In this document: positions 2,297 to 34,932 of the stretch, in pieces
Layout of the letters: each line of letters opens with the position of its first letter
Numbering within the stretch: position 1 is the stretch's first letter
Source of the DNA: Carpediemonas membranifera BICM
Lineage: Eukaryota; Protista; Fornicata
NCBI GenBank assembly: GCA_019828565.1
Contig: JAHDYR010000062.1
Span: 171,566-235,565 of the forward strand
DNA length: 64,000 nt
Direction of reading: 5' to 3'
Notes under the pieces: model-generated
What the model saw: only the letters and a program-made list of their open reading frames with translations
Told to the model about the DNA's origin: nothing
Databases searched by the model: none
Made by a program: the position numbers and the translations under genes

Positions 2297-2410
2297 GGCC
2301 GCTCCTTCTGAGCTCCATGGGGCACTGCCCTATCCATATAGGCCAGGCCTGTTGGTCCTTGTCCATCCATGATCGAAGTGTTTCCACTTTGCTGAAATCA
2401 TTGGTGAACT

Positions 2411-5400
2411 GACCCCCAAATGGCGAGTCGGACGCGAACGGGCAGCGCGCTCCTGGAATCAGCAGAGCGATACTCACTCCACGTATTCCGGTAGCGCGCG
2501 GTCCGGCGCCCTCCGCCCGCCTCGATGCTCGGCCGACCCAACTCGACCCTCGTCTGGATGCGACAGAGCAGGCGATTCCGGCCGAGCTCTGGATCTGAAT
2601 AGTAGACATACATGGTGCGTTTACTGACAGTGCGCTGCGTGCGTGCAGCGTGAGTGTGGGGTGTTCATTCAGAGTCGAGATGTGACTCGACCCCCAAATG
2701 GCGAGTCGGACGCGAACGGGCAGCGCGCTCCTGGAATCAGCAGAGCGATACTCACTCCACGTATTCCGGTAGCGCGCGGTCCGGCGCCCTCCGCCCGCCT
2801 CGATGCTCGGCCGACCCAACTCGACCCTCGTCTGGATGCGACAGAGCAGGCGACTCCAGCCGAGCTCTGGAGATGAATAGTAGATGCATATGGTGCGTTT
2901 TACTGACAGTGCGCTGCGTGCGTGCAGCGTGAGTGTGGGGTGTTCATTCAGAGTCGAGATGTGACTCGACTCCCCAAAAACGATGAGTCGGACGCGAACG
3001 GGCAGCGCGCTCCTGGAATCAGCAGAGCGATACTCACTCCACGTAGTCCGGTAGCGCGCGGTCCGGCGCCCTCCGCCCGCCTCGATGCTCGGCCGACCCA
3101 ACTCGACCCTCGTCTGGATGCGACAGAGCAGGCGATTCCGGCCGAGCTCTGGATCTGAATAGTAGATGCATATGGTGCGTTTACTGACAGTGCGCTGCGT
3201 GCGTGCAGCGTGAGTGTGGGGTGTTCATTCAGAGTCGAGATGTGACTCGACTCCCCAAAAGCGATGAGTCGGACGCGAACGGGCAGCGCGCTCCTGGAAT
3301 CAGCAGAGCGATACTCACTCCACGTAGTCCGGTAGCGCGCGGTCCGGCGCCCTCCGCCCGCCTCGATGCTCGGCCGACCCAACTCGACCCTCGTCTGGAT
3401 GCGACAGAGCAGGCGACTCCGGCCGAGCTCTGGATCTGAATAGTAGATGCATATGGTGCGTTTACTGACAGTGCGCTGCGTGCGTGCAGCGTGAGTGTGG
3501 GGTGTTCATTCAGAGTCGAGATGTGACTCGACCCCCAAAAACGATGAGTCGGACGCGAACGGGCAGCGCGCTCCTGGAATCAGCAGAGCGATACTCACTC
3601 CACGTATTCCGGTAGCGCGCGGTCCGGCGCCCTCCGCCCGCCTCGATGCTCGGCCGACCCAACTCGACCCTCGTCTGGATGCGACAGAGCAGGCGATTCC
3701 GGCCGAGCTCTGGATCTGAATAGTAGATGCATATGGTGCGTTTACTGACAGTGCGCTGCGTGCGTGCAGCGTGAGTGTGGGGTGTTCATTCAGAGTCGAG
3801 ATGTGACTCGACTCCCCAAATGGCGAGTCGGACGCGAACGGGCAGCGCGCTCCTGGAATCAGCAGAGCGATACTCACTCCACGTAGTCCGGTAGCGCGCG
3901 GTCCGGCGCCCTCCGCCCGCCTCGATGCTCGGCCGACCCAACTCGACCCTCGTCTGGATGCGACAGAGCAGGCGATTCCGGCCGAGCTCTGGATCTGAAT
4001 AGTAGATGCATATGGTGCGTTTACTGACAGTGCGCTGCGTGCGTGCAGCGTGAGTGTGGGGTGTTCATTCCAGAGTCGAGATGTGACTCGACTCCCAAAT
4101 GGCGAGTCGGACGCGAACGGGCAGCGCGCTCCTGGAATCAGCAGAGCGATACTCACTCCACGTATTCCGGTAGCGCGCGGTCCGGCGCCCTCCGCCCGCC
4201 TCGATGCTCGGCCGACCCAACTCGACCCTCGTCTGGATGCGACAGAGCAGGCGACTCCAGCCGAGCTCTGGAGATGAATAGTAGATGCATATGGTGCGTT
4301 TACTGACAGTGCGCTGCGTGCGTGCAGCGTGAGTGTGGGGTGTTCATTCAGAGTCGAGATGTGACTCGACTCCCCAAAACGATGAGTCGGACGCGAACGG
4401 GCAGCGCGCTCCTGGAATCAGCAGAGCGATACTCACTCCACGTAGTCCGGTAGCGCGCGGTCCGGCGCCCTCCGCCCGCCTCGATGCTCGGCCGACCCAA
4501 CTCGACCCTCGTCTGGATGCGACAGAGCAGGCGATTCCGGCCGAGCTCTGGATCTGAATAGTAGATGCATATGGTGCGTTTACTGACAGTGCGCTGCGTG
4601 CGTGCAGCGTGAGTGTGGGGTGTTCATTCAGAGTCGAGATGTGACTCGACTCCCAAAACGATGAGTCGGACGCGAACGGGCAGCGCGCTCCTGGAATCAG
4701 CAGAGCGATACTCACTCCACGTATTCCGGTAGCGCGCGGTCCGGCGCCCTCCGCCCGCCTCGATGCTCGGCCGACCCAACTCGACCCTCGTCTGGATGCG
4801 ACAGAGCAGGCGACTCCAGCCGAGCTCTGGAGATGAATAGTAGATGCATATGGTGCGTTTACTGACAGTGCGCTGCGTGCGTGCAGCGTGAGTGTGGGGT
4901 GTTCATTCAGAGTCGAGATGTGACTCGACTCCCAAAACGATGAGTCGGACGCGAACGGGCAGCGCGCTCCTGGAATCAGCAGAGCGATACTCACTCCACG
5001 TAGTCCGGTAGCGCGCGGTCCGGCGCCCTCCGCCCGCCTCGATGCTCGGCCGACCCAACTCGACCCTCGTCTGGATGCGACAGAGCAGGCGATTCCGGCC
5101 GAGCTCTGGATCTGAATAGTAGATGCATATGGTGCGTTTTACTGACAGTGCGCTGCGTGCGTGCAGCGTGAGTGTGGGGGTGTTCATTCAGAGTCGAGAT
5201 GTGACTCGACCCCCAAAACGCTGAGTCGGACGCGAACGGGCAGCGCGCTCCTGGAATCAGCAGAGCGATACTCACTCCACGTATTCCGGTAGCGCGCGGT
5301 CCAGCGCCCTCCGCCCGCCTCGATGCTCGGCCGACCCAACTCGACCCTCGTCTGGATGCGACAGAGCAGGCGATTCCGGCCGAGCTCTGGATCTGAATAG

Positions 5401-8400
5401 TAGATGCATATGGTGCGTTTACTGACAGTGCGCTGCGTGCGTGCAGCGTGAGTGTGGGGTGTTCATTCAGAGTCGAGATGTGACTCGACTCCCCAAATGG
5501 CGAGTCGGACGCGAACGGGCAGCGCGCTCCTGGAATCAGCAGAGCGATACTCACTCCACGTATTCCGGTAGCGCGCGGTCCGGCGCCCTCCGCCCGCCTC
5601 GATGCTCGGCCGACCCAACTCGACCCTCGTCTGGATGCGACAGAGCAGGCGATTCCGGCCGAGCTCTGGATCTGAATAGTAGATGCATATGGTGCGTTTA
5701 CTGACAGTGCGCTGCGTGCGTGCAGCGTGAGTGTGGGGTGTTCATTCAGAGTCGAGATGTGACTCGACTCCCAAAACGATGAGTCGGACGCGAACGGGCA
5801 GCGCGCTCCTGGAATCAGCAGAGCGATACTCACTCCACGTAGTCCGGTAGCGCGCGGTCCGGCGCCCTCCGCCCGCCTCGATGCTCGGCCGACCCAACTC
5901 GACCCTCGTCTGGATGCGACAGAGCAGGCGACTCCAGCCGAGCTCTGGATCTGAATAGTAGATGCATATGGTGCGTTTACTGACAGTGCGCTGCGTGCGT
6001 GCAGCGTGAGTGTGGGGTGTTCATTCAGAGTCGAGATGTGACTCGACTCCCCAAAACGATGAGTCGGACGCGAACGGGCAGCGCGCTCCTGGAATCAGCA
6101 GAGCGATACTCACTCCACGTAGTCCGGTAGCGCGCGGTCCGGCGCCCTCCGCCCGCCTCGATGCTCGGCCGACCCAACTCGACCCTCGTCTGGATGCGAC
6201 AGAGCAGGCGACTCCAGCCGAGCTCTGGATCTGAATAGTAGATGCATATGGTGCGTTTACTGACAGTGCGCTGCGTGCGTGCAGCGTGAGTGTGGGGTGT
6301 TCATTCAGAGTCGAGATGTGACTCGACTCCCCAAAACAGTCGAGTCCGGACGCGAACGGGCAGCGCGCTCCTGGAATCAGCAGAGCGATACCTCACTCCA
6401 CGTATTCCGGTAGCGCGCGGTCCGGCGCCCTCCGCCCGCCTCGATGCTCGGCCGACCCAACTCGACCCTCGTCTGGATGCGACAGAGCAGGCGATTCCGG
6501 CCGAGCTCTGGATCTGAATAGTAGATGCATATGGTGCGTTTACTGACAGTGCGCTGCGTGCGTGCAGCGTGAGTGTGGGGTGTTCATTCAGAGTCGAGAT
6601 GTGACTCGACTCCCAAATGCCGAGTCGGACGCGAACGGGCAGCGCGCTCCTGGAATCAGCAGAGCGATACTCACTCCACGTATTCCGGTAGCGCGCGGTC
6701 CGGCGCCCTCCGCCCGCCTCGATGCTCGGCCGACCCAACTCGACCCTCGTCTGGATGCGACAGAGCAGGCGACTCCGGCCGAGCTCTGGATCTGAATAGT
6801 AGATGCATATGGTGCGTTTACTGACAGTGCGCTGCGTGCGTGCAGCGTGAGTGTGGGGGTGTTCATTCAGAGTCGAGATGTGACTCGACTCCCCAAAACG
6901 ATGAGTCGGACGCGAACGGGCAGCGCGCTCCTGGAATCAGCAGAGCGATACTCACTCCACGTAGTCCGGTAGCGCGCGGTCCGGCGCCCTCCGCCCGCCT
7001 CGATGCTCGGCCGACCCAACTCGACCCTCGTCTGGATGCGACAGAGCAGGCGATTCCGGCCGAGCTCTGGATCTGAATAGTAGATGCATATGGTGCGTTT
7101 ACTGACAGTGCGCTGCGTGCGTGCAGCGTGAGTGTGGGGTGTTCATTCAGAGTCGAGATGTGACTCGACCCCCAAAATGGCGAGTCGGACGCGAACGGGC
7201 AGCGCGCTCCTGGAATCAGCAGAGCGATACTCACTCCACGTATTCCGGTAGCGCGCGGTCCGGCGCCCTCCGCCCGCCTCGATGCTCGGCCGACCCAACT
7301 CGACCCTCGTCTGGATGCGACAGAGCAGGCGACTCCGGCCGAGCTCTGGATCTGAATAGTAGACATGCATAGGTGCGTTTACTGACAGTGCGCTGCGTGC
7401 GTGCAGCGTGAGTGTGGGGTGTTCATTCAGAGTCGAGATGTGACTCGACCCCCAAATGGCGAGTCGGACGCGAACGGGCAGCGCGCTCCTGGAATCAGCA
7501 GAGCGATACTCACTCCACGTATTCCGGTAGCGCGCGGTCCGGCGCCCTCCGCCCGCCTCGATGCTCGGCCGACCCAACTCGACCCTCGTCTGGATGCGAC
7601 AGAGCAGGCGATTCCAGCCAGCTCTGGAGATGAATAGTAGATGCATCATGGTGCGTTTACTGACAGTGCGCTGCGTGCGTGCAGCGTGAGTGTGAGGTGT
7701 TCGTTCAGAGTCGAGATGTGACTCGACTCCCCAAAACGCGATGAGTCGGACGCGAACGGGCAGCGCGCTCCTGGAATCAGCAGAGCGATACTCACTCCAC
7801 GTAGTCCGGTAGCGCGCGGTCCGGCGCCCTCCGCCCGCCTCGATGCTCGGCCGACCCAACTCGACCCTCGTCTGGATGCGACAGAGCAGGCGATTCCGGC
7901 CGAGCTCTGGATCTGAATAGTAGATGCATATGGTGCGTTTACTGACAGTGCGCTGCGTGCGTGCAGCGTGAGTGTGGGGTGTTCATTCAGAGTCGAGATG
8001 TGAGCTCGACCCCCCAAATGGCGAGTCGGACGCGAACGGGCAGCGCGCTCCTGGAATCAGCAGAGCGATACTCACTCCACGTATTCCGGTAGCGCGCGGT
8101 CCGGCGCCCTCCGCCCGCCTCGATGCTCGGCCGACCCAACTCGACCCTCGTCTGGATGCGACAGAGCAGGCGACTCCGGCCGAGCTCTGGATCTGAATAG
8201 TAGACATACATGGTGCGTTTACTGACAGTGCGCTGCGTGCGTGCAGCGTGAGTGTGGGGTGTTCATTCAGAGTCGAGATGTGACTCGACCCCCAAATGGC
8301 GAGTCGGACGCGAACGGGCAGCGCGCTCCTGGAATCAGCAGAGCGATACTCACTCCACGTATTCCGGTAGCGCGCGGTCCGGCGCCCTCCGCCCGCCTCG

Positions 8401-9969
8401 ATGCTCGGCCGACCCAACTCGACCCTCGTCTGGATGCGACAGAGCAGGCGATTCCGGCCGAGCTCTGGATCTGAATAGTAGACATACATGGTGCGTTTAC
8501 TGACAGTGCGCTGCGTGCGTGCAGCGTGAGTGTGGGGTGTTCATTCAGAGTCGAGATGTGACTCAACCCCCAAATGGCGAGTCGGACGCGAACGGGCAGC
8601 GCGCTCCTGGAATCAGCAGAGCGATACTCACTCCACGTATTCCGGTAGCGCGCGGTCCGGCGCCCTCCGCCCGCCTCGATGCTCGGCCGACCCAACTCGA
8701 CCCTCGTCTGGATGCGACAGAGCAGGCGATTCCGGCCGAGCTCTGGATCTGAATAGTAGACATACATGGTGCGTTTACTGACAGTGCGCTGCGTGCGTGC
8801 AGCGTGAGTGTGGGGTGTTCATTCAGAGTCGAGATGTGACTCAACCCCCAAATGGCGAGTCGGACGCGAACGGGCAGCGCGCTCCTGGAATCAGCAGAGC
8901 GATACTCACTCCACGTATTCCGGTAGCGCGCGGTCCGGCGCCCTCCGCCCGCCTCGATGCTCGGCCGACCCAACTCGACCCTCGTCTGGATGCGACAGAG
9001 CAGGCGACTCCGGCCGAGCTCTGGATCTGAATAGTAGACATACATGGTGCGTTTTACTGACAGTGCGCTGCGTGCGTGCAGCGTGAGTGTGGGGTGTTCA
9101 TTCAGAGTCGAGATGTGACTCGACCCCCAAATGGCGAGTCGGACGCGAACGGGCAGCGCGCTCCTGGAATCAGCAGAGCGATACTCACTCCACGTATTCC
9201 GGTAGCGCGCGGTCCGGCGCCCTCCGCCCGCCTCGATGCTCGGCCGACCCAACTCGACCCTCGTCTGGATGCGACAGAGCAGGCGATTCCGGCCGAGCTC
9301 TGGATCTGAATAGTAGACATACATGGTGCGTTTACTGACAGTGCGCTGCGTGCGTGCAGCGTGAGTGTGGGGTGTTCATTCAGAGTCGAGATGTGACTCA
9401 ACCCCCAAATGGCGAGTCGGACGCGAACGGGCAGCGCGCTCCTGGAATCAGCAGAGCGATACTCACTCCACGTATTCCGGTAGCGCGCGGTCCGGCGCCC
9501 TCCGCCCGCCTCGATGCTCGGCCGACCCAACTCGACCCTCGTCTGGATGCGACAGAGCAGGCGATTCCGGCCGAGCTCTGGATCTGAATAGTAGACATAC
9601 ATGGTGCGTTTACTGACAGTGCGCTGCGTGCGTGCAGCGTGAGTGTGGGGTGTTCATTCAGAGTCGAGATGTGACTCAACCCCCAAATGGCGAGTCGGAC
9701 GCGAACGGGCAGCGCGCTCCTGGAATCAGCAGAGCGATACTCACTCCACGTATTCCGGTAGCGCGCGGTCCGGCGCCCTCCGCCCGCCTCGATGCTCGGC
9801 CGACCCAACTCGACCCTCGTCTGGATGCGACAGAGCAGGCGACTCCGGCCGAGCTCTGGATCTGAATAGTAGACATACATGGTGCGTTTACTGACAGTGC
9901 GCTGCGTGCGTGCAGCGTGAGTGTGGGGTGTTCATTCAGAGTCGAGATGTGACTCGACCCCCAAATGGC
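2411..9969. repeat. Tandem array 1: 27 units of a ~278-280 bp GC/CpG-rich repeat
   Basis: Unit GACCCCCAAATGGCGAGTCGGACGCG...CAGAGTCGAGATGTGACTC starts at 2411, 2689, 2968 ... 9678; a partial 28th unit (9956-9969) is cut by the element. Confidence 0.99.
9956..9969 (+). other. Target-site duplication, left copy (GACCCCCAAATGGC), element B
   Basis: The same 14-mer recurs at 18663-18676, immediately after the other end of the element; an uninterrupted repeat unit contains it once. Confidence 0.9.
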
Positions 9970-10876
9970 AAAGAAAGAAATTTATGGTGCTTGGATTCTG
10001 ACCCCGGACTGAGCTTGTTTCCCGTTGTCTTGGAGCTGAGTGCCCCGGGGGTACTGCCTATTTCCCGTGGCAAACTGGTCAGCAGCGTTTGCCTTGGGCT
10101 TTCGGTGCTACTGTCTCCGCGGAAAGCCGATTCCAATCGCCCCAGAGGCCCTGCGGCCATCTCCGTGCAAATATGCTTTCCTGTCTCCCTGAAAGTCCGG
10201 CAACTATCCGGGGAGCCTGGGGGTCTGTCCTCGGGGCATTGACAGGCAGGATCGTCCTGCAGAACCTTGACTATGACACTCCTTGCTTCCCTGCAGTCCT
10301 TGTAGAGCCGTTCAGCCACGGCACCCTCTCGTCTGTCCGGTTCCCCAATTCCATGCCCCCTCGACTCTGTTAAGAAGCCTACCCGAAGGCGGGGAAAGTG
10401 ACTAAGTCCATGCTGTCTACCCCGGTTAGGTGGCGTGGGTCAGGGCATGGGTGGTGTACCCCCAGGCACTAGGCCTGGTTGTCCTGTTACCCCTTACAAC
10501 ATTTCGCTTGCACTACATGTCCTTGGTTTCCCATGTCGTTAACAAGGGGCGGCAGGGGCACCTGTGCCCTCCGACCCCGTGGCCAGTCCCTGCAGTTTCC
10601 TTGGGGTCCCAACGAGTGGTGCAACCATATGAATATGGATTTCCTTGACCTTATCCTTGCTCTGTCCTTGTTGCATGTCCTTTCTTTCTTATTTCTGGTC
10701 TGTCCTTCCTGTTGTTTCCTTGCAGTCGTTCCTTCCCTTGCTTTGGTTCCTGGCTGCCGGGATGCGTGGGGCCTTTCCTCACTGATCCCAGGAGCTTAGC
10801 ACCAACGAGGGTGGTCCATAGCTGATTCCTTGTCCATCCCTTCCCGGTCCTGGAGTCAGGGGTTCATGACATGCTT

Positions 10877-13800
10877 CTATTCCACCTTGAAGCTGTTGTA
10901 AACCTTTGCCAGTTCCCGTAGTCCTGCCGTGAGGCCTTCCCCAAATGTCCTCCGAGCCCCATATTATTAGTTGCTGTAATTCTAGGATGGGTCTTTCCTG
11001 GTACCATTCGCCCTGGGGGGCCCTGCCTTACTTCCAAGTCCTTAGTTTTGTGCTTCGCTGCTGTCCACAGCTTTTGTCCAAGCTTCTCCCCTGTCTACTG
11101 CCGGGCATTCACAGATTATGTGCGCTGCCGATCCCTAGCCTCTGGCCCTCTGCCCACTCCCTGATCATTTCCTGCTTCCTTGCTGGTCCTGGCTTTTTCC
11201 CTAATGATCCTGTAGAACAGGCTCACCTCCGACTCCTCCGAGCATAGGGGGCATAGTCTGCTAATTTCTCTCTTCAGGTCAGCGCCTTGGGCCAGCTCTG
11301 TGATGGCTCTCATAGGGCCCTCCCTCTCTCTGCCGACGATGGGGATGGGCTGACATTGGCTGCAATGGATACAATTCTCTTCCATTCCGCCCTGCTTTGC
11401 CCCTTCCCAGCCTTTCGGTCTACCGTAGGCTTACCTTTGCAGACACTTGCTTAATTTCCCTTGTCCCCATGATTTCCATTAGTCCTAGTGCCGTACGGCT
11501 TTTGCACCGCTTCATCCACCCCCTCCTGATCGTTTCCATGCCATAATCCAGTAGCGCTGGTTTAGGGGCTCTCTCTGGTGCCCTCCAGTAGATGCTGCAC
11601 TCTCCCCTAGCTTCCCACATAACCGTGCCCCGCCCCCATTCTCTGTTTCTGACTGGTATATCCCTGGTCCCTGTAGTTGACTATCCTTTTTGACTGCCAG
11701 CCATTCCATGTGTGCCTGGAGGTCCACCCATCCATTCATCAGCCTCATGGCTGCGCCCCCTCCCGGTCCTGTTCCTGCCATGATTCCCTGCCAGTCATTC
11801 CAGATCCTTCTACCTCCCGGTGCGTTCCCCCACACCTCGACTCCGAAGAGGATCCTGGGCCATATATATATTTCCAGTAGTAGCCTGCTCGCTAGTGCTG
11901 GCATGTTTGCCCTGGTCCACCCTGCCCATCTCACCAGTCTCTTGTACCTTTCGCTCTGCTCCTGTTTCCGCCTTATGCAGGCCGACGCTAGGGTCCTTCC
12001 CACTTGCGATCCATAATCCCAGGTATCTCGCCTCCTTCTCTGGCAGTAGTGTTACCCCCTCGATCCTGACTAGGGGCTGTTCTGTCCACGCTAATCATTA
12101 CATTCTTCTGGGCGTTCACCCTCATTTCATGCTCTCTGATTATGTCCACCATTATGTTGGCGACCATCTGGCTATGCTCCGGTTTTGCTCCCTGTGACCG
12201 CAGTGTCATCCACAAACATGGTAAGTGCTGCCGGTAGTCGGTCGCTGAGGGTGGCTCGTGGTCCTTGGCGGTTCTCTGATGTCGTACCGTTCTCCCTTGA
12301 TTTTTCTTTCTGGCCAGGTGGGGCCAGTTAGCCATGAACAGCACAAACAGTGTCGGTGCCAGGACGCACCCTTGCTTAACTCCCCTGTTGGTTCTTTCCC
12401 ATGCCTTTGCCCCCTTGACTGATATCCAGGGTTTCCTTTATTGTGCCTTGAATTGCCCTGATCAAGTGCTCCTCCACCCCCATACCCTGTAGCTTATCCA
12501 TGAGAATGTCCCTTGGTACCGTGTCATATGCCTTCTCGATGTCCAGAAAGATTGACGTGGTCTCACCCCCTCCTGGTGCCGCTGCACGATGTACTGTATC
12601 TGCTGGATGACGTCCCTGTCTGACTGGAAACCAGCCTGTTCTCTTGGTATGAACCTTTTTCGTTGCTGCTTCCAGACGTATCTTGAGCAATCTACCATAG
12701 ACCCTGTACAGCAGTGGTGTCAAGGATATTGGTCTATATGATTCCGGCTTGACCCTTGGCTTCCCTTTTCTTGTGTATGGCCGACACTGTGGCATACTTC
12801 CATGCTTTGGGTACGTCGCCCTCCCTGTAGACCCTGTTGATGAGCCTCGTCACTTCCCTAAGGCCTTTCTCATCCAGCTCTCTCAGCATGTCTCCAGATG
12901 TGAGGTCAGGCCCTGGTGCGGTGTCCCTCCTGATCCTTTTTGATTGCGGCTTTGACCTCGCTTTCCTTGAACTCATTTCCGTCCCTGCCCTCCATGTCTT
13001 TCCAGGTGGGTTCCCTGCCTCTGCTGACTCTAGCATACTGTTTGCAGAGGATCTCGCTGATGGCCGCCTTGTCCGTGGTTATCACTCCGTCCTTGAGGAG
13101 GCTCTCCGGCATTCCCTTGTATTGGTTGTCACACCACCACCTTCTGATGGCAGCTTCCACTGAGGGCCCTTGAGGGCCCTATACCCCCTTTTTTGCACTT
13201 CTGCTGATGTCGGCCACCCATTTGGCCCTGCGCTCTCCCCAGTATTTCTCCAGCTCCTCTTTCATCCTTTCCTTCCTGGTCCTGTTGCCTATTTCTGTCC
13301 ATGGGGTTCGCTGGAGTTCGCTCCACACTCCGTTCCCGAACACTTTGTCCCTTGCCTTTGCTCCCCTGTTGTTCACTGGGTCGCCCATGCATGCTCTTAT
13401 AGTCTCTTCCCATTGGTCCGAGCTCTTGATCCTGTTCGGCTTTGGGACTGTGACTGGCCCCTCCTTCTTTTTCATGGGCCGGGTGTGCACCTCGGGTATG
13501 GCCAGAGCCACGTCTCGCTCACTTCTGCCATAGTACCGTTGTTCCTTCCATGCTAGTGTGATTCCATTGTGTGCTGAGCCCCCATACCCCGACCTTCTGA
13601 GACTCTACCACCTCAATCTCCGCCCCTGGATTCCTGGTGTTGTCACTGCAAAGTCCGGGGTTGATGTTCCTGATGTGAGCGTCCCAGACTTGGGTATGAT
13701 GGCTTTGAGCCTGTGCTTCTCCATCATATCCTTCCACCGGGTGGATCTTTCCATCTGGCCTGGGTCGATGTTCCAGTCTCCCATAATTATGGCCTCCATG

Positions 13801-14337
13801 CTCCCTTTCATGTCCATGATCTTCTGTATAGTGTCCCTGAATCCATCCTTCTCCTGCTTGCTGTGGCCGGATGGAGGGCCATACGTTGATGACTAGTATG
13901 TCCCTGCCGGTTCTCATTATGCTGGCTTGCACTCTTCCCGATAGGCTGTCCGTTATGCCGATGTCCCACTTTGCAGTTGCGTGTGGGCTCACTATCGATG
14001 CCGATGCCTTCCCTTGTTCCCTTCCATCTTGGCGCAGGTTCGTCATTGCCTGCTATGCCTAGTTGTCGGTTGATGCGGTGCTGACTTTTTGACATCCGCC
14101 TTTCGTTTTTCGTTGGCTAAGACCAGGTCCTCTTCCGTCTCCCTCCCTGCTGAGTGCGTAGTCAAGGTCCATGAAGCAATGAACCCTCGTATTCGCCGTT
14201 CTCCATGTCTCTTGTATGAGTACTGCCTCTATGTCCTTCAACCTTAGCTGAATCGCCGTTGCCATAGACGCCGTGAAGTCCTTTCCTCTTCCTATGTGTC
14301 CCTCTGTGTTCAGACTAAGTATCTTGTAGGTTACCAT
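10877..14337 (-). CDS. ORF2 copy B: APE endonuclease - reverse transcriptase - CCHC zinc finger (~1150 aa, reconstructed across frameshifts)
   Basis: Starts MVTYKILSLNTEG. APE motifs LIQET, INVYGP, IIMGDWN, TPDFAV. RT motifs APGPD, YRPISL, QAGF, FLDIEKAYDTV, GVKQGCVLAP, FVDD (12205-12216), YLG. Then CPLC...HIICECP; ends ...KVYNSFKVE* (TAG at 10877-10879). Confidence 0.92.
11102..11253 (-). other. C-terminal CCHC zinc finger of ORF2 (CPLC-x~37-HIICEC)
   Basis: Continuous in copy D (ORF 43347-43739: PLCSEE...AAHIICECP); H-x4-C pattern typical of non-LTR ORF2 C-termini. Confidence 0.65.
12015..12925 (-). other. Reverse transcriptase domain, copy B
   Basis: Non-LTR RT motifs in the expected order from APGPD to RYLG; best preserved in copy C (ORFs 28631-29050 and 27866-28474). 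Confidence 0.95.
13550..14337 (-). other. APE (exonuclease III-like) endonuclease domain, copy B
   Basis: N-x-x-G (LNTEG), QET, NVYGP, GDWN, PDF and a terminal WNH motif in APE order. Confidence 0.9.
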
Positions 14338-14513
14338 TGCCTTTGTCCTGTTTCCTTATCCTGCGAATTCCCAGAATTTGGGGCCCCAACTTCCCGCTCC
14401 TCTCCTGCTATCCTTGTCCTAACAAGGGGCTAGATACCGGTCTCGGTGACCCTTGTCAGGCCAACCTTGTTACCACCTGGTGACCTTCCATTCTTCGGGC
14501 GGGGTACTTGGGA

Positions 14514-14609
14514 GGGGGACGATATGACGTGACCCCCCCTTTGGCTGCCGCTACAGCCTACCGGCAGTGCATTTCAGCTAATGCCGGGCCCTGGAGTGGG
14601 AGCCAGGGC
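14514..14609. promoter_or_regulatory. Cluster of four adjacent hairpins in the ORF1-ORF2 spacer (putative structured RNA)
   Basis: GGGGG/CCCCC (14514-14537), GGCTG/CAGCC (14543-14558), CCGGCA/TGCCGG (14561-14587), GCCCTGG/CCAGGGC (14588-14609); also present in copies C and D. Function is inferred. Confidence 0.4.
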
Positions 14610-14656
14610 TTGTGAATTATAAAGAAAATGTTGCTTGTTCCTTGAAGAATACTGCT

Positions 14657-17600
14657 TTACCATGTCCTTACTCCTCCTCCGTGGACTCCCCACTGCCGCT
14701 GCAGCTGTCCTCGGCCTGACTCACTTGCTGTCCTTGTAGACTCTGCATTACCGTGATGAACTGGGTCATCAGGTCCATGGAGTGAGATCTGCTTGGCCTT
14801 CTTAGCCTTCTTGTGCTTGTGCCGGGGGGATCGTGGGCTTCTCCTTGCTGGGCTTAGTCGCGACGCCGGAGAGCACCAACCTTCCGTGGCCTTGCTCTTG
14901 CATGAGTCGGGCAGCCTTGAGCGCTGAGATCTCTTGTTGCGCCTCTGCCAGCTGCTTTCGGAGCCGCAGCTTCTCCGAGTCCATGCCGGTTGCCTGTCTG
15001 CTTCCAGACTCCCAGTCCATGTCCTCTTCGTGCCTGCTTCTCTTTCCGCTGTCCGAGTCCATGATCCTACTCGTGCTGCCCTCCTTGCGCTTGAGCGTCG
15101 TGGAGGAAGAGTGATCCTTGCTGTTGTCCATGCCTCCCTCTGAGCCTCTACCGGCCCAGGTGTTCCCGCTGAACGAGCCTCTCATCTGCGTTCCCGTGTT
15201 GTCCTGTCTCTCCCTGTCGTCTCCTCCGTGGTTGCGATCCGAGGTCCTGTTCATGTTACCAGCTCTGTCGCCGGTTCTGTCGTCAGCTCTGACACCAGCT
15301 CTACCGCCGGCTCCGTGTCCTACCCTTCTGTCCTCTTCCCTGTCTCCATGCTGGTCGTGATGTCCTTGATCCGCGTCCTGGCCGAAGTGCCTGCCCACCA
15401 TCCTGGTGCTAATCCGCCTCGCCTTTTCCTCCAGGCCGTTGTCCGAAGAACCTACTTTGGTATGGCTGTTCCGGACTTTCCGTCGATGGTGGGGACATAC
15501 GTGATGCCTGGGACATTGACTGTGTTGGCTCTGGGCTCGTCCGGGATAGCTGCCGAGACTAGTCTGGCCCCTTCCTTGCGCATGCGGCTTAGGATGGTCC
15601 CAGCCTCGCTGACCCTGACCATGCCCCCAGTCTCTCGGGATGAAGCTCGCCCCTAGGGTGATCCTACCCCTGTTCCTGGGGGGCCTTGACGTTGACTATG
15701 ACCTTCTCATAGTCCCTGAGGCTCTCTGCTAGGTCGTCGCAGCCCCAGACTCCTTGATGAGCCGTAGCCTCCTTCGAGGGCCACCACTCGTATAGCATGG
15801 CCATGGTTATGATGTCCTCCTCCCTTGCTGCCCCTAGGCCCTTCCTGACGCGTACCATGCGGAGCTGGTTTAGCCGTGGCTCTTTCCATGATGGTCCATA
15901 GCGGGCTTCTCTCCAGTACACCTTCGTTGTCCATGATTGTGAGGGGGGCCGGTAAGATGCCCTTCATGCCCAACAGAACCTCCCCGAACCCGAAGCCGAT
16001 GCCGAAGCGGTGTCCGTTGTCCGGGACTACGAGGGATCCTGTCGCCGACTTCCCTGCTGACGTCCCTTGCGTCCCCGATCGGGTACGTGCCGAAGATCTC
16101 AAAGGTGTCCCTCCTTGTCGCGAATTCCGGGCCTCCCATGATATCCATGCCCGGCTCCGCCTTCCCGACTGCTTCCATGGTCTTGTCGAGTGCCTTACCC
16201 ATGTAGTGGTAGACGTCTGGGGTGCTCATCCTCTCCTTGCATGGGGCCCTGATCCTGGCTGTGAAGACTACTGTATCCGCCAACCCACAGTGGTAGCAAC
16301 CCGCGGTGTGTCTGTGGTACGGACAGACTCCCTTGGGCTCGCTCCTGTTCTGCCATCCATTTGACCATGTTGTTGCTGCTTCCGGGTAGTTGGCCTTGTC
16401 GAGGTTGTCCCTGAGGTTTTGGCCAGCCTCCTCCTTGCCGTTGTTCTCCAGGATCTCTGGTAGCTTCTTCTCGTCCACCAGCCTAGCTTGGAAGAATTCC
16501 CTGGTTCCTTGCTCCAGTCCATTTGTGGGGTTCGTGAGGAGGAAGCTTTCCATCTCCACCCCTTTGCATACATGATTATCTTCCAACCCTCCGACCTTTC
16601 GATCCTTGCCAGCTGAGCCGCCAGGCGGTTGGCCCCAGTCCCTGAAAGTATGTATGTGCTTCTCATACTCGATCGGCGGCCGCCCCGTCCCGACCTCCAC
16701 GAAGGTGGCCGGCGGCAGCCTTCGTCACTACCCATGCCGTGTACCTCGCTTGGTCCATGCTTGCTGCCGGTATGTCCTGGTAATACAGGCCATGCCCGTG
16801 TCCAAGAATGTCCCCAGTGCTGAGGTCAAAGAGTACGATCCCGCCCTCAACCGGGATGGCGGGGATCCCTACCTTCTTGACGCCAGGGTCTGCGCACTCG
16901 AAGTCGATGGCTCCGATCACCAGTCGTTTCTCCTTGTCCTTTCTAGGCATCCTCGGCGGCTGGCTGCTGACCTTGTTTGAGTCGACCTCCTCGTCCTGGT
17001 CGATCTTGCCTTGGTTGGCCCCGACCATGTCCTTGTTCACTTCCAGGAGGCTGTCGTCGAGGCTTCTTCTGCCGGGCATGGTGGCCTGCTGGCGTCGTTC
17101 CTCCTTGTCCTTGACATGTTGCTCCTCGTCTCCGTCGATGACCGTGCTAGCGGACGACCTGTCCAGATCGGCATGTTCGTCCCTATTGCTGCGGACCGAG
17201 GTGGCCTTGAGCACTTCCAGCCTCACCTTCCGGAACGGCGGCTCGTTGCTAAGGGGGTCTCCTCCCCTTCGCCCAGGATATTGGTTCTGCCCTTCAGGTA
17301 GATCCCTGACTTGTTCCATGCTGCCTGCCATATGGCCGGGGCCTCCGGTGCCTGAAGCCTGAGGGATGTCCCTAGCCTCCTCCATGAAGCGGCTGATGGA
17401 CCATGCTGACGTGTCGCTTAGCTCTAGGATGACCCTGTACTTGCCGTCCTCTTGCTCGTAGGCCACTCTGGTGACCGGGCCTTGGTTTTGCCGGATCCCA
17501 TACCTTGTCGTAAGGCACGCCTTCTACGGCCTCGTCTCCATGAGCCCCTGATACCAGTATGAACGACCCTTCGGCCTTCTTGACGCTGTCCCTGTCTACA

Positions 17601-18548
17601 TCCCATTCGATGGGCCCATCTTCCCTTCGGCTTGAGGATCGCCGTCTCGATGTCCTTCTCAGATGGCCATCTTGCCATGCCAGTGAAGCCCGCTTTCAGC
17701 GTCTTGGGCTCCAGTGCCTGTGCCATGTCCTTTGCTTCCTCGTCTCTGGGGTTGAGCGCCTCTGTGAGCATGTAGAAAAGGTCGCGGAGGCCGTGGATGC
17801 CGCATGGGTTCCTGAGGATGATGTCCTTGTTGTCAGTGACGCCGGTTGCGAAGAGGATGCGTCTGGCGTTCATGATTACTTCCTTGCGTCCTTTGGAGTT
17901 CGCATTGAGCGACTTTCCTGTAAACTTGCCTGTTCTGCGAAGAAGTAGAGTCCTTGAATCGTTCCTTTCAGCGAGGAAGCTGTCCAGTAGTTCCCTGATG
18001 TCCTCCCACTGCTTCTGCGTGGAATCCCTGATCCTTGTCGGTATTTCTACCTGCATTGTTGAGTGCAAAAATTTCTCCCCTTTTCCTGGTCCATAAACTG
18101 GGTCGGAATTTTTTTGGGTCCGAAAGTCGGGCCACATGTACATATCCGGGTGAGGTCTCCGTCCAGGCCTTCCAGTTTCTCCCATTGTCCATGCTCCGTA
18201 CTATATAGGCCATTCTTTCAAAAAGGCGCGGTCCTAAAAAAATGCGTCGCCCTTTTTCTGAGTAGCGGGGCCTTTCTGTGTAGTTGTTGTTGCTTTGTTC
18301 GTAGTCTCCTTTTTAGCCTCTATCGACGGCCCCTGTTTCCCTTTTTGTGCTGCCCTTCCTTCCTTGTGGTCTTGACAAAACCATGTAGCCGCCGGTGCTA
18401 GCACTGGCCCTCGACGGTTGTTTTCCTTTTCCTTGTAAACATACGTTCCATGAAGACACTTTGATTCCTTGGTATGGGCGTGGAGCTCCCACTCGCGCCC
18501 AGCGGTATGCCCTGATAGCAACCCTTGAATGTTCAGACAGGAGGCCAA
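14657..18548 (-). CDS. ORF1 copy B (~1200-1300 aa): unknown N-terminal region, DEDDh/ECHC exonuclease, unknown domain, low-complexity region, coiled coil, basic tail
   Basis: Fragments 18234-18548, 17424-18185, 16663-17466, 15870-16700, 15707-16102, 15664-15921 and 14802-15401 chain together by comparison with other copies; ends ...GGGVRTW* (TAA at 14657-14659). Start codon uncertain. Confidence 0.75.
16260..16925 (-). other. DEDDh/ECHC exonuclease domain, copy B
   Basis: IDFEC at 16894-16908, in frame with PAIPVEGGIVLFDL (ORF 16663-17466); CPYHRHTAGCYHCGLAD at 16275-16325. Confidence 0.78.
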
Positions 18549-18662
18549 GGCCGCTCCTTCTGAGCTCCATGGGGCACTGCCCTATCCATATAGGCCAGGC
18601 CTGTTGGTCCTTGTCCATCCATGATCGAAGTGTTTCCACTTTGCTGAAATCATTGGTGAACT

Positions 18663-18676
18663 GACCCCCAAATGGC
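18663..18676 (+). other. Target-site duplication, right copy, element B
   Basis: GACCCCCAAATGGC directly after the element's 5' end; identical junctions at 2411 and 34933. Confidence 0.9.
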
Positions 18677-21600
18677 GAGTCGGACGCGAACGGGCAGCGC
18701 GCTCCTGGAATCAGCAGAGCGATACTCACTCCACGTATTCCGGTAGCGCGCGGTCCGGCGCCCTCCGCCCGCCTCGATGCTCGGCCGACCCAACTCGACC
18801 CTCGTCTGGATGCGACAGAGCAGGCGATTCCGGCCGAGCTCTGGAGATGAATAGTAGATGCATATGGTGCGTTTACTGACAGTGCGCTGCGTGCGTGCAG
18901 CGTGAGTGTGGGGTGTTCATTCAGAGTCGAGATGTGACTCGACTCCCAAAACGATGAGTCGGACGCGAACGGGCAGCGCGCTCCTGGAATCAGCAGAGCG
19001 ATACTCACTCCACGTATTCCGGTAGCGCGCGGTCCGGCGCCCTCCGCCCGCCTCGATGCTCGGCCGACCCAACTCGACCCTCGTCTGGATGCGACAGAGC
19101 AGGCGATTCCGGCCGAGCTCTGGATCTGAATAGTAGATGCATATGGTGCGTTTACTGACAGTGCGCTGCGTGCGTGCAGCGTGAGTGTGGGAGTGTTCAT
19201 TCAGAGTCGAGATGTGACTCGACTCCCAAAAACGATGAGTCGGACGCGAACGGGCAGCGCGCTCCTGGAATCAGCAGAGCGATACTCACTCCACGTAGTC
19301 CGGTAGCGCGCGGTCCGGCGCCCTCCGCCCGCCTCGATGCTCGGCCGACCCAACTCGACCCTCGTCTGGATGCGACAGAGCAGGCGATTCCGGCCGAGCT
19401 CTGGATCTGAATAGTAGATGCATATGGTGCGTTTTACTGACAGTGCGCTGCGTGCGTGCAGCGTGAGTGTGGGGTGTTCATTCAGAGTCGAGATGTGACT
19501 CGACCCCCAAATGGCGAGTCGGACGCGAACGGGCAGCGCGCTCCTGGAATCAGCAGAGCGATACTCACTCCACGTATTCCGGTAGCGCGCGGTCCGGCGC
19601 CCTCCGCCCGCCTCGATGCTCGGCCGACCCAACTCGACCCTCGTCTGGATGCGACAGAGCAGGCGACTCCGGCCGAGCTCTGGATCTGAATAGTAGACAC
19701 ATGCATGGTGCGTTTACTGACAGTGCGCTGCGTGCGTGCAGCGTGAGTGTGGGGTGTTCATTCAGAGTCGAGATGTGACTTGACCCCCAAATGGCGAGTC
19801 GGACGCGAACGGGCAGCGCGCTCCTGGAATCAGCAGAGCGATACTCACTCCACGTATTCCGGTAGCGCGCGGTCCGGCGCCCTCCGCCCGCCTCGATGCT
19901 CGGCCGACCCAACTCGACCCTCGTCTGGATGCGACAGAGCAGGCGATTCCGGCCGAGCTCTGGATCTGAATAGTAGATGCATATGGTGCGTTTACTGACA
20001 GTGCGCTGCGTGCGTGCAGCGTGAGTGTGGGGTGTTCATTCAGAGTCGAGATGTGACTCGACTCCCAAAACGATGAGTCGGACGCGAACGGGCAGCGCGC
20101 TCCTGGAATCAGCAGAGCGATACTCACTCCACGTAGTCCGGTAGCGCGCGGTCCGGCGCCCTCCGCCCGCCTCGATGCTCGGCCGACCCAACTCGACCCT
20201 CGTCTGGATGCGACAGAGCAGGCGATTCCGGCCGAGCTCTGGATCTGAATAGTAGATGCATATGGTGCGTTTACTGACAGTGCGCTGCGTGCGTGCAGCG
20301 TGAGTGTGGGGTGTTCATTCAGAGTCGAGATGTGACTCGACTCCCCAAAATGTAATGAGTCGGACGCGAACGGGCAGCGCGCTCCTGGAATCAGCAGAGC
20401 GATACTCACTCCACGTATTCCGGTAGCGCGCGGTCCGGCGCCCTCCGCCCGCCTCGATGCTCGGCCGACCCAACTCGACCCTCGTCTGGATGCGACAGAG
20501 CAGGCGACTCCAGCCGAGCTCTGGAGATGAATAGTAGATGCATATGGTGCGTTTACTGACAGTGCGCTGCGTGCGTGCAGCGTGAGTGTGGGGTGTTCAT
20601 TCAGAGTCGAGATGTGACTCGACTCCCAAAACGATGAGTCGGACGCGAACGGGCAGCGCGCTCCTGGAATCAGCAGAGCGATACTCACTCCACGTAGTCC
20701 GGTAGCGCGCGGTCCGGCGCCCTCCGCCCGCCTCGATGCTCGGCCGACCCAACTCGACCCTCGTCTGGATGCGACAGAGCAGGCGATTCCGGCCGAGCTC
20801 TGGATCTGAATAGTAGATGCATATGGTGCGTTTACTGACAGTGCGCTGCGTGCGTGCAGCGTGAGTGTGGGGTGTTCATTCAGAGTCGAGATGTGACTCG
20901 ACTCCCCAAATAACGAGAGTCGGACGCGAACGGGCAGCGCGCTCCTGGAATCAGCAGAGCGATACTCACTCCACGTATTCCGGTAGCGCGCGGTCCGGCG
21001 CCCTCCGCCCGCCTCGATGCTCGGCCGACCCAACTCGACCCTCGTCTGGATGCGACAGGCAGGCGATTCCGGCCGAGCTCTGGAGATGAATAGTAGATGC
21101 ATATGGTGCGTTTACTGACAGTGCGCTGCGTGCGTGCAGCGTGAGTGTGGGGTGTTCATTCAGAGTCGAGATGTGACTCGACCCCCAAAATGACGAGTCG
21201 GACGCGAACGGGCAGCGCGCTCCTGGAATCAGCAGAGCGATATTCACTCCACGTAGTCCGGTAGCGCGCGGTCCGGCGCCCTCCGCCCGCCTCGATGCTC
21301 GGCCGACCCAACTCGACCCTCGTCTGGATGCGACAGAGCAGGCGACTCCGGCCGAGCTCTGGAGATCTGAATAGTAGATGCATATGGTGCGTTTACTGAC
21401 AGTGCGCTGCGTGCGTGCAGCGTGAGTGTGGGGTGTTCATTCAGAGTCGAGATGTGACTCGACTCCCCAAATGGCGAGTCGGACGCGAACGGGCAGCGCG
21501 CTCCTGGAATCAGCAGAGCGATACTCACTCCACGTATTCCGGTAGCGCGCGGTCCGGCGCCCTCCGCCCGCCTCGATGCTCGGCCGACCCAACTCGACCC

Positions 21601-24600
21601 TCGTCTGGATGCGACAGAGCAGGCGATTCCGGCCGAGCTCTGGATCTGAATAGTAGATGCATATGGTGCGTTTACTGACAGTGCGCTGCGTGCGTGCAGC
21701 GTGAGTGTGGGGTGTTCATTCAGAGTCGAGATGTGACTCGACTCCCCAGAATGGTGAGTCGGACGCGAACGGGCAGCGCGCTCCTGGAATCAGCAGAGCG
21801 ATACTCACTCCACGTAGTCCGGTAGCGCGCGGTCCGGCGCCCTCCGCCCGCCTCGATGCTCGGCCGACCCAACTCGACCCTCGTCTGGATGCGACAGAGC
21901 AGGCGACTCCGGCCGAGCTCTGGAGATGAATAGTAGATGCATATGGTGCGTTTACTGACAGTGCGCTGCGTGCGTGCAGCGTGAGTGTGGGGTGTTCATT
22001 CAGAGTCGAGATGTGACTCGACTCCCCAAAAACGATGAGTCGGACGCGAACGGGCAGCGCGCTCCTGGAATCAGCAGAGCGATACTCACTCCACGTAGTC
22101 CGGTAGCGCGCGGTCCGGCGCCCTCCGCCCGCCTCGATGCTCGGCCGACCCAACTCGACCCTCGTCTGGATGCGACAGAGCAGGCGACTCCAGCCGAGCT
22201 CTGGATCTGAATAGTAGATGCATATGGTGCGTTTACTGACAGTGCGCTGCGTGCGTGCAGCGTGAGTGTGGGGTGTTCATTCAGAGTCGAGATGTGACTC
22301 GACTCCCAGAACGATGAGTCGGACGCGAACGGGCAGCGCGCTCCTGGAATCAGCAGAGCGATACTCACTCCACGTAGTCCGGTAGCGCGCGGTCCGGCGC
22401 CCTCCGCCCGCCTCGATGCTCGGCCGACCCAACTCGACCCTCGTCTGGATGCGACAGAGCAGGCGATTCCGGCCGAGCTCTGGATCTGAATAGTAGATGC
22501 ATATGGTGCGTTTACTGACAGTGCGCTGCGTGCGTGCAGCGTGAGTGTGGGGTGTTCATTCAGAGTCGAGATGTGACTCGACTCCCCAAAATGGCGAGTC
22601 GGACGCGAACGGGCAGCGCGCTCCTGGAATCAGCAGAGCGATACTCACTCCACGTATTCCGGTAGCGCGCGGTCCGGCGCCCTCCGCCCGCCTCGATGCT
22701 CGGCCGACCCAACTCGACCCTCGTCTGGATGCGACAGAGCAGGCGACTCCGGCCGAGCTCTGGATCTGAATAGTAGATGCATACATGGTGCGTTTACTGA
22801 CAGTGCGCTGCGTGCGTGCAGCGTGAGTGTGGGGTGTTCATTCAGAGTCGAGATGTGACTCGACTCCCCAAAAACGATGAGTCGGACGCGAACGGGCAGC
22901 GCGCTCCTGGAATCAGCAGAGCGATACTCACTCCACGTATTCCGGTAGCGCGCGGTCCGGCGCCCTCCGCCCGCCTCGATGCTCGGCCGACCCAACTCGA
23001 CCCTCGTCTGGATGCGACAGAGCAGGCGACTCCAGCCGAGCTCTGGAGATGAATAGTAGATGCATATGGTGCGTTTACTGACAGTGCGCTGCGTGCGTGC
23101 AGCGTGAGTGTGGGGTGTTCATTCAGAGTCGAGATGTGACTCGACTCCCAAAAACGATGAGTCGGACGCGAACGGGCAGCGCGCTCCTGGAATCAGCAGA
23201 GCGATACTCACTCCACGTAGTCCGGTAGCGCGCGGTCCGGCGCCCTCCGCCCGCCTCGATGCTCGGCCGACCCAACTCGACCCTCGTCTGGATGCGACAG
23301 AGCAGGCGATTCCGGCCGAGCTCTGGATCTGAATAGTAGATGCATATGGTGCGTTTACTGACAGTGCGCTGCGTGCGTGCAGCGTGAGTGTGGGGTGTTC
23401 ATTCAGAGTCGAGATGTGACTCGACCCCCAAATGGCGAGTCGGACGCGAACGGGCAGCGCGCTCCTGGAATCAGCAGAGCGATACTCACTCCACGTATTC
23501 CGGTAGCGCGCGGTCCGGCGCCCTCCGCCCGCCTCGATGCTCGGCCGACCCAACTCGACCCTCGTCTGGATGCGACAGAGCAGGCGACTCCGGCCGAGCT
23601 CTGGATCTGAATAGTAGACATACATGGTGCGTTTACTGACAGTGCGCTGCGTGCGTGCAGCGTGAGTGTGGGTGTGTTCATTCAGAGTCGAGATGTGACT
23701 CGACCCCCAAATGGCGAGTCGGACGCGAGATCGGGCAGCGCGCTCCTGGAATCAGCAGAGCGATACTCACTCCACGTATTCCGGTAGCGCGCGGTCCGGC
23801 GCCCTCCGCCCGCCTCGATGCTCGGCCGACCCAACTCGACCCTCGTCTGGATGCGACAGAGCAGGCGACTCCAGCCGAGCTCTGGAGATGAATAGTAGAT
23901 GCATATGGTGCGTTTACTGACAGTGCGCTGCGTGCGTGCAGCGTGAGTGTGGGGTGTTCATTCAGAGTCGAGATGTGACTCGACTCCCAAAACGATGAGT
24001 CGGACGCGAACGGGCAGCGCGCTCCTGGAATCAGCAGAGCGATACTCACTCCACGTAGTCCGGTAGCGCGCGGTCCGGCGCCCTCCGCCCGCCTCGATGC
24101 TCGGCCGACCCAACTCGACCCTCGTCTGGATGCGACAGAGCAGGCGATTCCGGCCGAGCTCTGGATCTGAATAGTAGATGCATATGGTGCGTTTACTGAC
24201 AGTGCGCTGCGTGCGTGCAGCGTGAGTGTGGGGTGTTCATTCAGAGTCGAGATGTGACTCGACCCCCAAAATGGCGAGTCGGACGCGAACGGGCAGCGCG
24301 CTCCTGGAATCAGCAGAGCGATACTCACTCCACGTATTCCGGTAGCGCGCGGTCCGGCGCCCTCCGCCCGCCTCGATGCTCGGCCGACCCAACTCGACCC
24401 TCGTCTGGATGCGACAGAGCAGGCGACTCCGGCCGAGCTCTGGATCTGAATAGTAGACATACATGGTGCGTTTACTGACAGTGCGCTGCGTGCGTGCAGC
24501 GTGAGTGTGGGGTGTTCATTCAGAGTCGAGATGTGACTCGACCCCCAAATGGCGAGTCGGACGCGAACGGGCAGCGCGCTCCTGGAATCAGCAGAGCGAT

Positions 24601-26224: not shown

Positions 26225-27132
26225 AAAGAAAGAAATTTATGGTGCTTGGATTCTGACCCCGGACTGAGCTTGTTTCCCGTTGTCTTGGAGCTGAGTGCCC
26301 CGGGGTACTGCCTATTTCCCGTGGCAAACTGGTCAGCAGCGTTTGCCTTGGGCTTTCGGTGCTACTGTCTCCGCGGAAAGCCGATTCCAATCGCCCCAGA
26401 GGCCCTGCGGCCATCTCCGTGCAAATATGCTTTCCTGTCTCCCCTGAAAGTCCGGCAACTATCCGGGGAGCCTGGGGGTCTGTCCTCGGGGCATTGACAG
26501 GCAGGATCGTCCTGCAGAACCTTGACTATGACACTCCTTGCTTCCCTGCAGTCCTTGTAGAGCCGTTCAGCCACGGCACCCTCTCGTCTGTCCGGTTCCC
26601 CAATTCCATGCCCCCTCGACTCTGTTAAGAAGCCTACCCGAAGGCGGGGAAAGTGACTAAGTCCATGCTGTCTACCCCGGTTAGGTGGCGTGGGTCAGGG
26701 CATGGTGGTGTACCCCCAGGCACTAGGCCTGGTTGTCCTGTTACCCCCTTACAACATTTCGCTTGCACTACATGTCCTTGGTTTCCCATGTCGTTAACAG
26801 GGCGGCAGGGGCACCTGTGCCCCTCCGACCCCCGTGGCCAGTCCCTGCAGTTTCCTTGGGGTCCCAACGAGTGGTGCAACCATATGAATATGGATTTCCT
26901 TGACCTTATCCTTGCTCTGTCCTTGTTGCATGTCCTTTCTTTCTTATTTCTGGTCTGTCCTTCCTGTTATTTCCTTTGCAGTCGTTCCTTCCCTTGCTTT
27001 GGTTCCTGGCTACCGGGATACGTGGGCCTTTCCTCACTGATCCCAGGAGCTTAGCACCCAGCGAGGGTGGTCCATGGCTGATTCCTTGTCCATCCCTTCC
27101 CGGTCCTGGAGTCAGGGGTTCATGACATGCTT

Positions 27133-30592: not shown

Positions 30593-30918
30593 TGCCTTTG
30601 TCCTGTTTCCCCTTATCCCGCGAATTCCCAGAATTTGGGAGCCCCAGCTTCCCGCTCCTCTCCCGCTATCCTTGTCCTAACAAGGGGCCTAGATGCCGGT
30701 CTCGGTGACTCCCTTGTCAGGCCAACCTTGTTACCACCTGGTGACCTTCCATTCTTCGGGCAGGGTACTTAGGAGGGGGACGATATGACGTGACCCCCCT
30801 TTGGCTGCCGCTACAGCCTACCGGCAGTGCATTTCAGCTAATGCCGGGCCCTGGGTGGGAGCCAGGGCTTGTGAATTATAAAGAAAAATGTTGCTTGTTC
30901 CTTGAAAGAATACTGCTT

Positions 30919-34818: not shown

Positions 34819-34932
34819 GGCCGCTCCTTCTGAGCTCCATGGGGCACTGCCCTATCCATATAGGCCAGGCCTGTTGGTCCTTGTCCATCCATGATCGAAG
34901 TGTTTCCACTTTGCTGAAATCATTGGTGAACT

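Follow-up and report, generated by a model that had tools for sequence, protein, structure and literature searches.

When every copy of a retrotransposon at a locus sits at the same base of a satellite repeat, has the element chosen that base each time, or has one insertion been copied together with its surroundings? The question is raised by a 64,000-nucleotide stretch of the genome of the fornicate protist Carpediemonas membranifera BICM (GCA_019828565.1, contig JAHDYR010000062.1, positions 171,566 to 235,565 of the forward strand; hereafter the window), in which arrays of a 279-bp repeat alternate with copies of a long interspersed nuclear element (LINE) that carries an endonuclease of the apurinic/apyrimidinic type (APE). 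The original prediction saw here an APE LINE inserted at one fixed site of the repeat, with the caveat that a single insertion might have been amplified later. We find that the caveat describes the locus better, and put the probability at about 0.7 that the window consists of tandem blocks of ~16.25 kb derived from a single insertion that was later amplified with its flanks.

Periodicity extends throughout the window: in a self-comparison, positions 1-42446 align to 16246-58734 at 97%. The repeated block of ~16.25 kb contains 27-28 satellite monomers and one 8.7-kb element on the minus strand. Four satellite arrays, I (2411..9969), II (18663..26224), III (34933..42454) and IV (51223..59017, the noisiest of the four), hold 27, 27, 27 and 28 monomers (27.0, 27.0, 27.1 and 28.0 copies), in agreement with the predicted period of 279 bp. 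They alternate with five minus-strand pieces of the element, a retrotransposon that lacks long terminal repeats (non-LTR): copy A (1..2410, its 5' part, cut by the window edge), copy B (9970..18662, 8,693 bp), copy C (26225..34932, 8,708 bp), copy D (42455..51222, 8,768 bp) and copy E (59018..64000, its 3' part, likewise cut by the edge). Successive 5' junctions are 16,252, 16,270 and 16,290 bp apart, and successive 3' junctions 16,255, 16,230 and 16,563 bp.

All four 3' junctions (9969/70, 26224/5, 42454/5 and 59017/8) and all four 5' junctions (2410/1, 18662/3, 34932/3 and 51222/3) share one monomer position and one orientation. The predicted 14-bp target-site duplication (TSD) is also borne out, since GACCCCCAAATGGC is duplicated exactly around copy B (plus strand, 9956..9969 at its 3' end and 18663..18676 at its 5' end); small deviations are present, as had been noted, in later copies at 26224 (one extra A), 42454, 59017 and 51223, and these fall in the noisier half of the window. 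Copy B starts with AGTTCACC and ends in a (TTTC)2TTT tail. In four of four copies the first 60 nt of the element are identical, with no copy truncated when set against the rest, and the 3' tails of four of four agree but for one homopolymer letter. Contigs of run X1 stop at 9970 and 18664, leaving 1 and 3 unaligned letters and bridging neither junction, which corroborates the limits of the element. No contig of X1, X2 or X3 aligned to the satellite, and those of X2 and X3 aligned nowhere in the window, although this is no proof of absence. What had been predicted about structure (APE and reverse transcriptase (RT) domains, a 14-bp TSD, a 279-bp repeat) therefore stands, yet the junctions are not four independent observations of a fixed site, because they belong to one repeated unit of 16.23-16.56 kb.

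The order of the monomers bears directly on whether there was one insertion or several. The 109 monomers of the four arrays fall into few haplotypes; we typed them at three sites and compared array order by position, and with gaps, against shuffles. By position, types match at 16 of 27 monomers between arrays I and II, at 21 of 27 between I and III and at 18 of 27 between II and III, where shuffles average 6-7 (p=0.0001), and once gaps are allowed each of the six array pairs outdoes every one of the 300 shuffles. In arrays I-III an identical series of types runs through the seven monomers that adjoin the 3' junction, and array IV ends in 5-6 monomers of the class of that series. When left-aligned, array IV matches array II at 16 of 27 positions, a significant agreement that it does not show with I or III. 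The target-type allele is found in 63 of the 109 monomers, yet there is only one element per period. Equal spacing, collinear variants, identical ends and the empty target-type monomers are thus our grounds for reading the window as one insertion amplified with its flanks, and the earlier caveat is borne out by the equal number of monomers per array, the shared order of variants and the identity of both element ends.

In this scenario the element would have integrated by target-primed reverse transcription, an established mechanism. Given that mechanism, the minus-strand position of the element and the TSD, its APE domain would have nicked the plus strand at TGGC^GAGTC and the minus strand at GGTC^GAGTC, 14 nt apart. 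At an example empty target with the P allele (9117..9140) the two putative nicks bracket the 14-mer at 9135/9136 on the plus strand and 9122/9121 on the minus strand, both at C^GAGTC. They thus share one hexamer, found a single time on each strand of the target-type monomer tested. A symmetric context of 6 nt arises in 22 of 3892 combinations of position and TSD length (7-20 nt) in the monomer (0.6%), and in 0.17% of such choices in element DNA. Unequal exchange or recombination-dependent copying would then have multiplied the block, with some gain and reshuffling of monomers, and the element itself would be young and probably intact.

Several observations weigh against this account. The blocks are imperfect copies of one another: array IV, with its 28 monomers, agrees with arrays I-III at no more than 8 of 27 positions when right-aligned, which is not significant, and when left-aligned its agreement is significant with array II alone. 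Over the first 15 monomers, agreement is found for I-III (p=0.0006), II-IV (p=0.0009) and, weakly, II-III (p=0.023), with none for I-II, I-IV or III-IV. Collinearity could itself be produced or obscured when a consensus is polished across copies of a repeat, and the mechanism of amplification is inferred. The test of nick symmetry, moreover, concerns one event examined after the fact. Imperfect blocks fit ongoing unequal exchange, and could partly reflect consensus mixing during assembly. Over the first 15 monomers array I resembles III and array II resembles IV, a hint of a two-block period of 32.5 kb. The element copies do not support such a period: the split of A and C from B and D is marked by 0 substitutions, that of A and B from C and D by 8.

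A strictly site-specific element, each copy of which had inserted independently at the same satellite base as R1 does in ribosomal DNA (rDNA), would account for the shared base, orientation and TSD at all junctions and for the symmetric C^GAGTC nick pair, and it would have a parallel in the R1Bm endonuclease, whose cuts on the two strands fall at related words flanking a 14-bp region (described in passages of PMC1919474). The 27/27/27/28 spacing, the collinear variants and the identical ends nonetheless make this very improbable, as do the lack of any truncated copy among the five and the many empty target-type monomers between elements. We also think it unlikely that the multi-copy array is an artefact of sequencing or assembly, either an over-expanded repeat or a concatemer of a 16-kb circle, with fewer copies in the genome. 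Differences between copies are mostly A/G swaps and indels that grow toward one end of the window, as an artefact might produce, but the arrays differ in monomer number and in the order of multi-base haplotypes, for which random read error on one template is an unlikely source.

A further possibility is compatible with the single insertion and extends it: the family may be sequence-specific for the satellite site genome-wide, and the array amplified from one such insertion. We hold this only tentatively, at clearly less than even odds. In its favour are the nick symmetry, near-identical gene models on two different contigs, and the polymorphism of the site itself. The 109 monomers comprise 63 P and 46 R target-site haplotypes (for example P at 9122-9135 and R at 4648-4662), plus an AAC variant, and the densest polymorphism lies inside the 14-mer; the first 17 bases are the most polymorphic stretch of the monomer, with 10 of the 19 variable columns of arrays I-II, although some of these reflect alignment around homopolymers. 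Both common site variants turn the -1 C of one putative nick into T, as target escape would, but both changes are CpG-to-TpG and selection is not needed, so that escape and plain CpG mutation both explain them. A weak hint against genome-wide specificity is that the X1 contigs end at both element ends without bridging into the TSD, and these stops fit variable flanks, variable tails or low depth alike. The symmetric nick pair may be the trace expected of a sequence-preferring APE, and the R1Bm endonuclease is described as recognising both nick sites by the sequence around its 14-bp region (in the same passages of PMC1919474). That the nuclease targets this satellite throughout the genome is to us a real possibility, if not quite an even bet.

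The site had also been placed in the loop of an inverted repeat, and the words GACTCG (2684) and CGAGTC (2702) are indeed present. Inverted repeats of this 6-bp kind, however, number four in the monomer and 2.0 on average in its shuffles (P about 0.19), which is not above chance, and when the DNA is folded locally an overlapping, competing stem is favoured; we therefore rejected the hairpin loop as a meaningful target. The meaningful part of the inverted repeat is the symmetry of the nicks.

As to what the repeat is, Rfam gave no match at the gathering score in the 64 kb and none at E<=10 in 8280-9969, and ARAGORN found no transfer RNA (tRNA) in the window. A known RNA gene (ribosomal, small nuclear, transfer or spliced-leader RNA) was thus rejected as the target, although a diverged RNA is possible. 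The monomer has a GC content of 62% and folds better than its shuffles on both strands (z -3.07 and -2.66), and compensatory pairs numbered 0 of 90 and 0 of 86 in 8 of the 109 monomers, which vary little. The repeat is best called a young, GC-rich, dyad-rich satellite, and might possibly be an undescribed RNA gene. The new class of target that had been suggested finds no support, whether or not the element is specific, since satellites are already on record: in the legend of the Tx1 phylogeny (PMC4494074 Fig. 3) 'Sat, satellites' is one of the target types, and U2-derived satellites are the preferred site of YURE elements according to sections of PMC4640811. The usual target classes given in part of PMC5035012 do not include satellites.

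Is the element itself capable of the integration proposed here? We scanned 77 open-frame stretches from copies B and C against Pfam, and the informative matches were an APE domain (Exo_endo_phos_2, PF14529, best E 4e-7) and an RT domain (RVT_1, PF00078, best E 2e-16). In copy B, the second open reading frame (ORF2; 10880..14349, minus strand, limits approximate and frameshifted in the window) contains the APE domain (approximately 13560..14337, motifs LNTE, QETW, GDWN, PDF and SAH), the RT core (11991..12849, RVT_1 pieces and an FVDD motif) and a C-terminal Cys/His motif. In a frameshift-aware alignment ORF2 follows P0002, a protein of 1160 aa whose best PDB matches are L1 ORF2p, over residues 40-1152 at 37% identity. 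The APE catalytic motifs N, E, D-x-N, D and H are present in the element and common to its relatives. An SAH motif lies near window position 13575 and characterizes the whole lineage, including P0002, P0177 and P0322; the usual APE motif at this position is SDH. RNase H was detected neither in the window fragments nor in P0002, P0177 and P0322. The combination of APE followed by RT in ORF2, a TSD, a simple-repeat 3' tail and unlike ends with no LTRs is that of an APE-type LINE, and the predicted identity is supported by both Pfam matches and by colinearity with the full-length P0002. In how it would work, the element resembles an ordinary APE LINE.

Upstream of ORF2 lies a long ORF1 region (14700..18620, minus strand, about 1,300 codons, limits approximate) that appears broken by read errors; its ~4 kb gave no Pfam match at curated cut-offs. 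At the 5' end of the element (18316-18660, minus strand) one reading frame, which opens at the third base, runs on for 115 codons and has ATGs near nt 41 and 45, so that either the 5' leader is very short or the founder copy was 5'-truncated. At the end of the ORF1 region (14860-15000, minus strand) a predicted coiled-coil-like stretch is followed by a basic Lys/His-rich run, both seen by eye, and a 12-bp minisatellite of 4.6 copies inside ORF1 (15259-15313 and 31521-31575) encodes a short acidic repeat. A scan for bacterial promoters and terminators, not relevant to this DNA, gave nothing.

The reading frames are interrupted in copies B-E. Differences between copies are mainly A/G swaps and indels that increase along the window: match levels of arrays I-IV are 97, 97, 95 and 92%, and RT frameshifts relative to P0001 number 7 in copy B, 4 in C, 15 in D and 17 in E. 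The identity of ~80% for copy E is probably lowered by the alignment, BLAST giving about 91% for that end. A/G swaps with indels are the pattern of poorly polished nanopore sequence, and the differences seen here look like errors of that sort. One X1 contig covers 12275-12644, and each of the three frameshifts that copy B has there is mirrored by an X1 indel of matching kind. At 10 of 12 substitution rows X1 agrees with copies C and D and departs from B; these 12 are what is left of 28 rows once the 16 from two diverged contigs are set aside. X1 is possibly the source sample of the window itself and hence not independent support. Some ORF2 breaks, for example near 12766, are common to B and C. 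Most of the breaks would seem to be read errors, and ORF2 is likely to be intact.

The closest proteins are from Carpediemonas membranifera itself, at 96-99% identity. J8273_1798 is identical to copy A at 347 of 352 aligned residues and to the ORF1 of copy B (16610-17678) at 345 of 349, and J8273_5573 is identical to copy C at 178 of 186; these near-identical gene models lie on two contigs, of 1,840,870 and 198,299 bp, respectively. J8273_4944 represents a sister family at about 80% identity. We built RT trees with FastTree on 82 rows and with IQ-TREE on 38 of those 82, with no labelled Tx1 or R1 references among the rows. The element of the window groups with J8273_4944 and three full-length proteins on a single, fully supported branch (IQ-TREE 100/100, FastTree 1.0), and neither tree places this lineage within the cluster that bears RNase H. 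Its deeper placement differs between them: in FastTree the lineage adjoins three L1-like rows at 0.82, of which only the Striga row is typed as L1, by its Pfam architecture, whereas in IQ-TREE it lies across a 97/98 branch from the L1-like rows. The element thus appears to belong to a clade of APE LINEs that we leave unnamed because the trees hold no labelled Tx1 or R1 references, and whose deeper position differs between the trees.

Some further matches touch on the wider family. P0002, P0177 and P0322 sit on contigs of 10.3-11.0 kb, about one element long. Two diverged X1 contigs align at 10127-10234 and 12310-12428, the former with 11 differences in 108 bases near the 3' end and the latter a deeper-covered RT piece with 9 listed differences, which suggests further LINE families in the sample. 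With P0001 as the query, a weak RT-like match of 32 residues (E 1e-4) was found on a metagenome contig (L001:6011-6118), one locus among 63 stretches.

ORF1 offers a lead of a different kind. A 240-aa frame of copy C (P0326; 32464..33183, minus strand, equivalent to about 16270-16920 in copy B) shows by eye an IDFE motif and a C-terminal C-x-x-H...C-x-L-A-D pattern, which may be DEDD/Maelstrom-like. The nearest Atlas clusters with an assigned family are RNase_T and Rv2179c-like at 0.92, and the ten best named matches all fall in one clan, that of RNase_T, although they share 140-155 features, below the 170 typical of same-family matches. The equivalent fragment of copy B, which changes frame, gave no usable Atlas match; sequence searches of Pfam, PHROGs, NCBIfam and PDB returned no relevant match, and a single-sequence model reached a predicted local distance difference test (pLDDT) score of 36, with no fold match at E<=0.001 (best Z 4.9) and no DEDD fold listed. 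As a lead only, ORF1 may carry a DEDD/Maelstrom-like nuclease. Residue sets EHHCHC and DEDHD are described in part of PMC2628886, and DEDDy ORFs are reported from LTR and Penelope-like elements in sections of PMC5408684. A single literature search showed no LINE ORF1 with a DEDD-type nuclease. Bdelloid LTR elements and Terminons, and protist Maelstrom, would share with this element a DEDD-type nuclease with a Cys-His-Cys motif, possibly in a retroelement (as far as those sections of PMC5408684 and PMC2628886 go), but in the bdelloid cases the nuclease is in LTR and Penelope-like elements and the candidate here is in ORF1 of an APE LINE.

Among known systems, R1Bm, of the 28S rDNA-specific R1 clade, is alike in having APE and RT domains, a 14-bp target region and a tandem-array setting, and its nick geometry is possibly similar. 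It cuts the two strands at the related words ACA!GTG and ACT!ATC (in the passages of PMC1919474 cited above), whereas the putative word here, C^GAGTC, is identical on both strands and specificity is only a possibility. The target here, moreover, is neither rDNA nor any Rfam family, and our RT trees contain no named R1 sequence. Elements of the Tx1 clade (Keno, Kibi, Koshi, Tx1-Mar and satellite families) combine APE with target preference, satellites being among their targets, but PMC4494074 describes Tx1 as found in animals, and the present host is a fornicate protist. The element of the window lies on its own long branch with four proteins, its position relative to the L1-like rows is not stable, and its ORF1 belongs to no recognised family. 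YURE and Utopia, of U2 genes and a U2-derived satellite, are also non-LTR elements in tandem arrays (sections of PMC4640811); they use a restriction-like endonuclease in place of APE, and no similarity of the monomer to U2 was found (Rfam, 8280-9969).

More general parallels concern the array. Retrotransposon copies co-amplified inside satellite higher-order repeats are a general class, and the present locus resembles it in that one insertion is carried in a repeated block with monomer order kept. What differs is that here about half of the block consists of the element, which appears intact, and that the host is a fornicate protist. The centromeric Zepp/ZeppL-LINE1 clusters of green algae are another LINE-rich repetitive locus in a unicellular eukaryote. 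Zepp elements are nested in each other, whereas the elements here alternate with a 279-bp satellite and are not nested, and a link to CenpA is speculative. The Carpediemonas kinetochore is extremely reduced, with Ndc80 and CenpC lost and a CenpA candidate retained, according to parts of PMC8516963; a centromeric role for the satellite-LINE array is speculation. It is unlikely that all of the more far-reaching proposals hold together, namely that an unclassified Carpediemonas lineage of APE LINEs nicks C^GAGTC twice head to head, inserts specifically into a hairpin-rich 279-bp satellite and bears a Maelstrom-like DEDD nuclease in ORF1, that LINE-satellite blocks form centromere-like arrays in a protist without Ndc80 and CenpC, and that the satellite carries escape alleles at the cut sites. 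We found no published description of the element or array in our literature searches or in term searches of the main text of PMC8516963, its supplementary file 2 and the preprint, Repbase being outside the scope of the search.

In summary, the locus as it now appears serves as a caution: LINE junctions that look alike throughout a satellite, and that most likely arose by amplification of a block, are no evidence of target choice. Should a preference for C^GAGTC be borne out, the element would have a compact APE nuclease that makes the first and second nicks on the same word, would allow a clean study of the second-strand step, which is poorly understood, and would represent a sequence-specific lineage of APE elements that belongs to neither R1 nor Tx1. 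For the organism itself, set beside what the parts of PMC8516963 consulted report of its kinetochore, the satellite-LINE array provides a concrete candidate for a CenpA locus in Carpediemonas.

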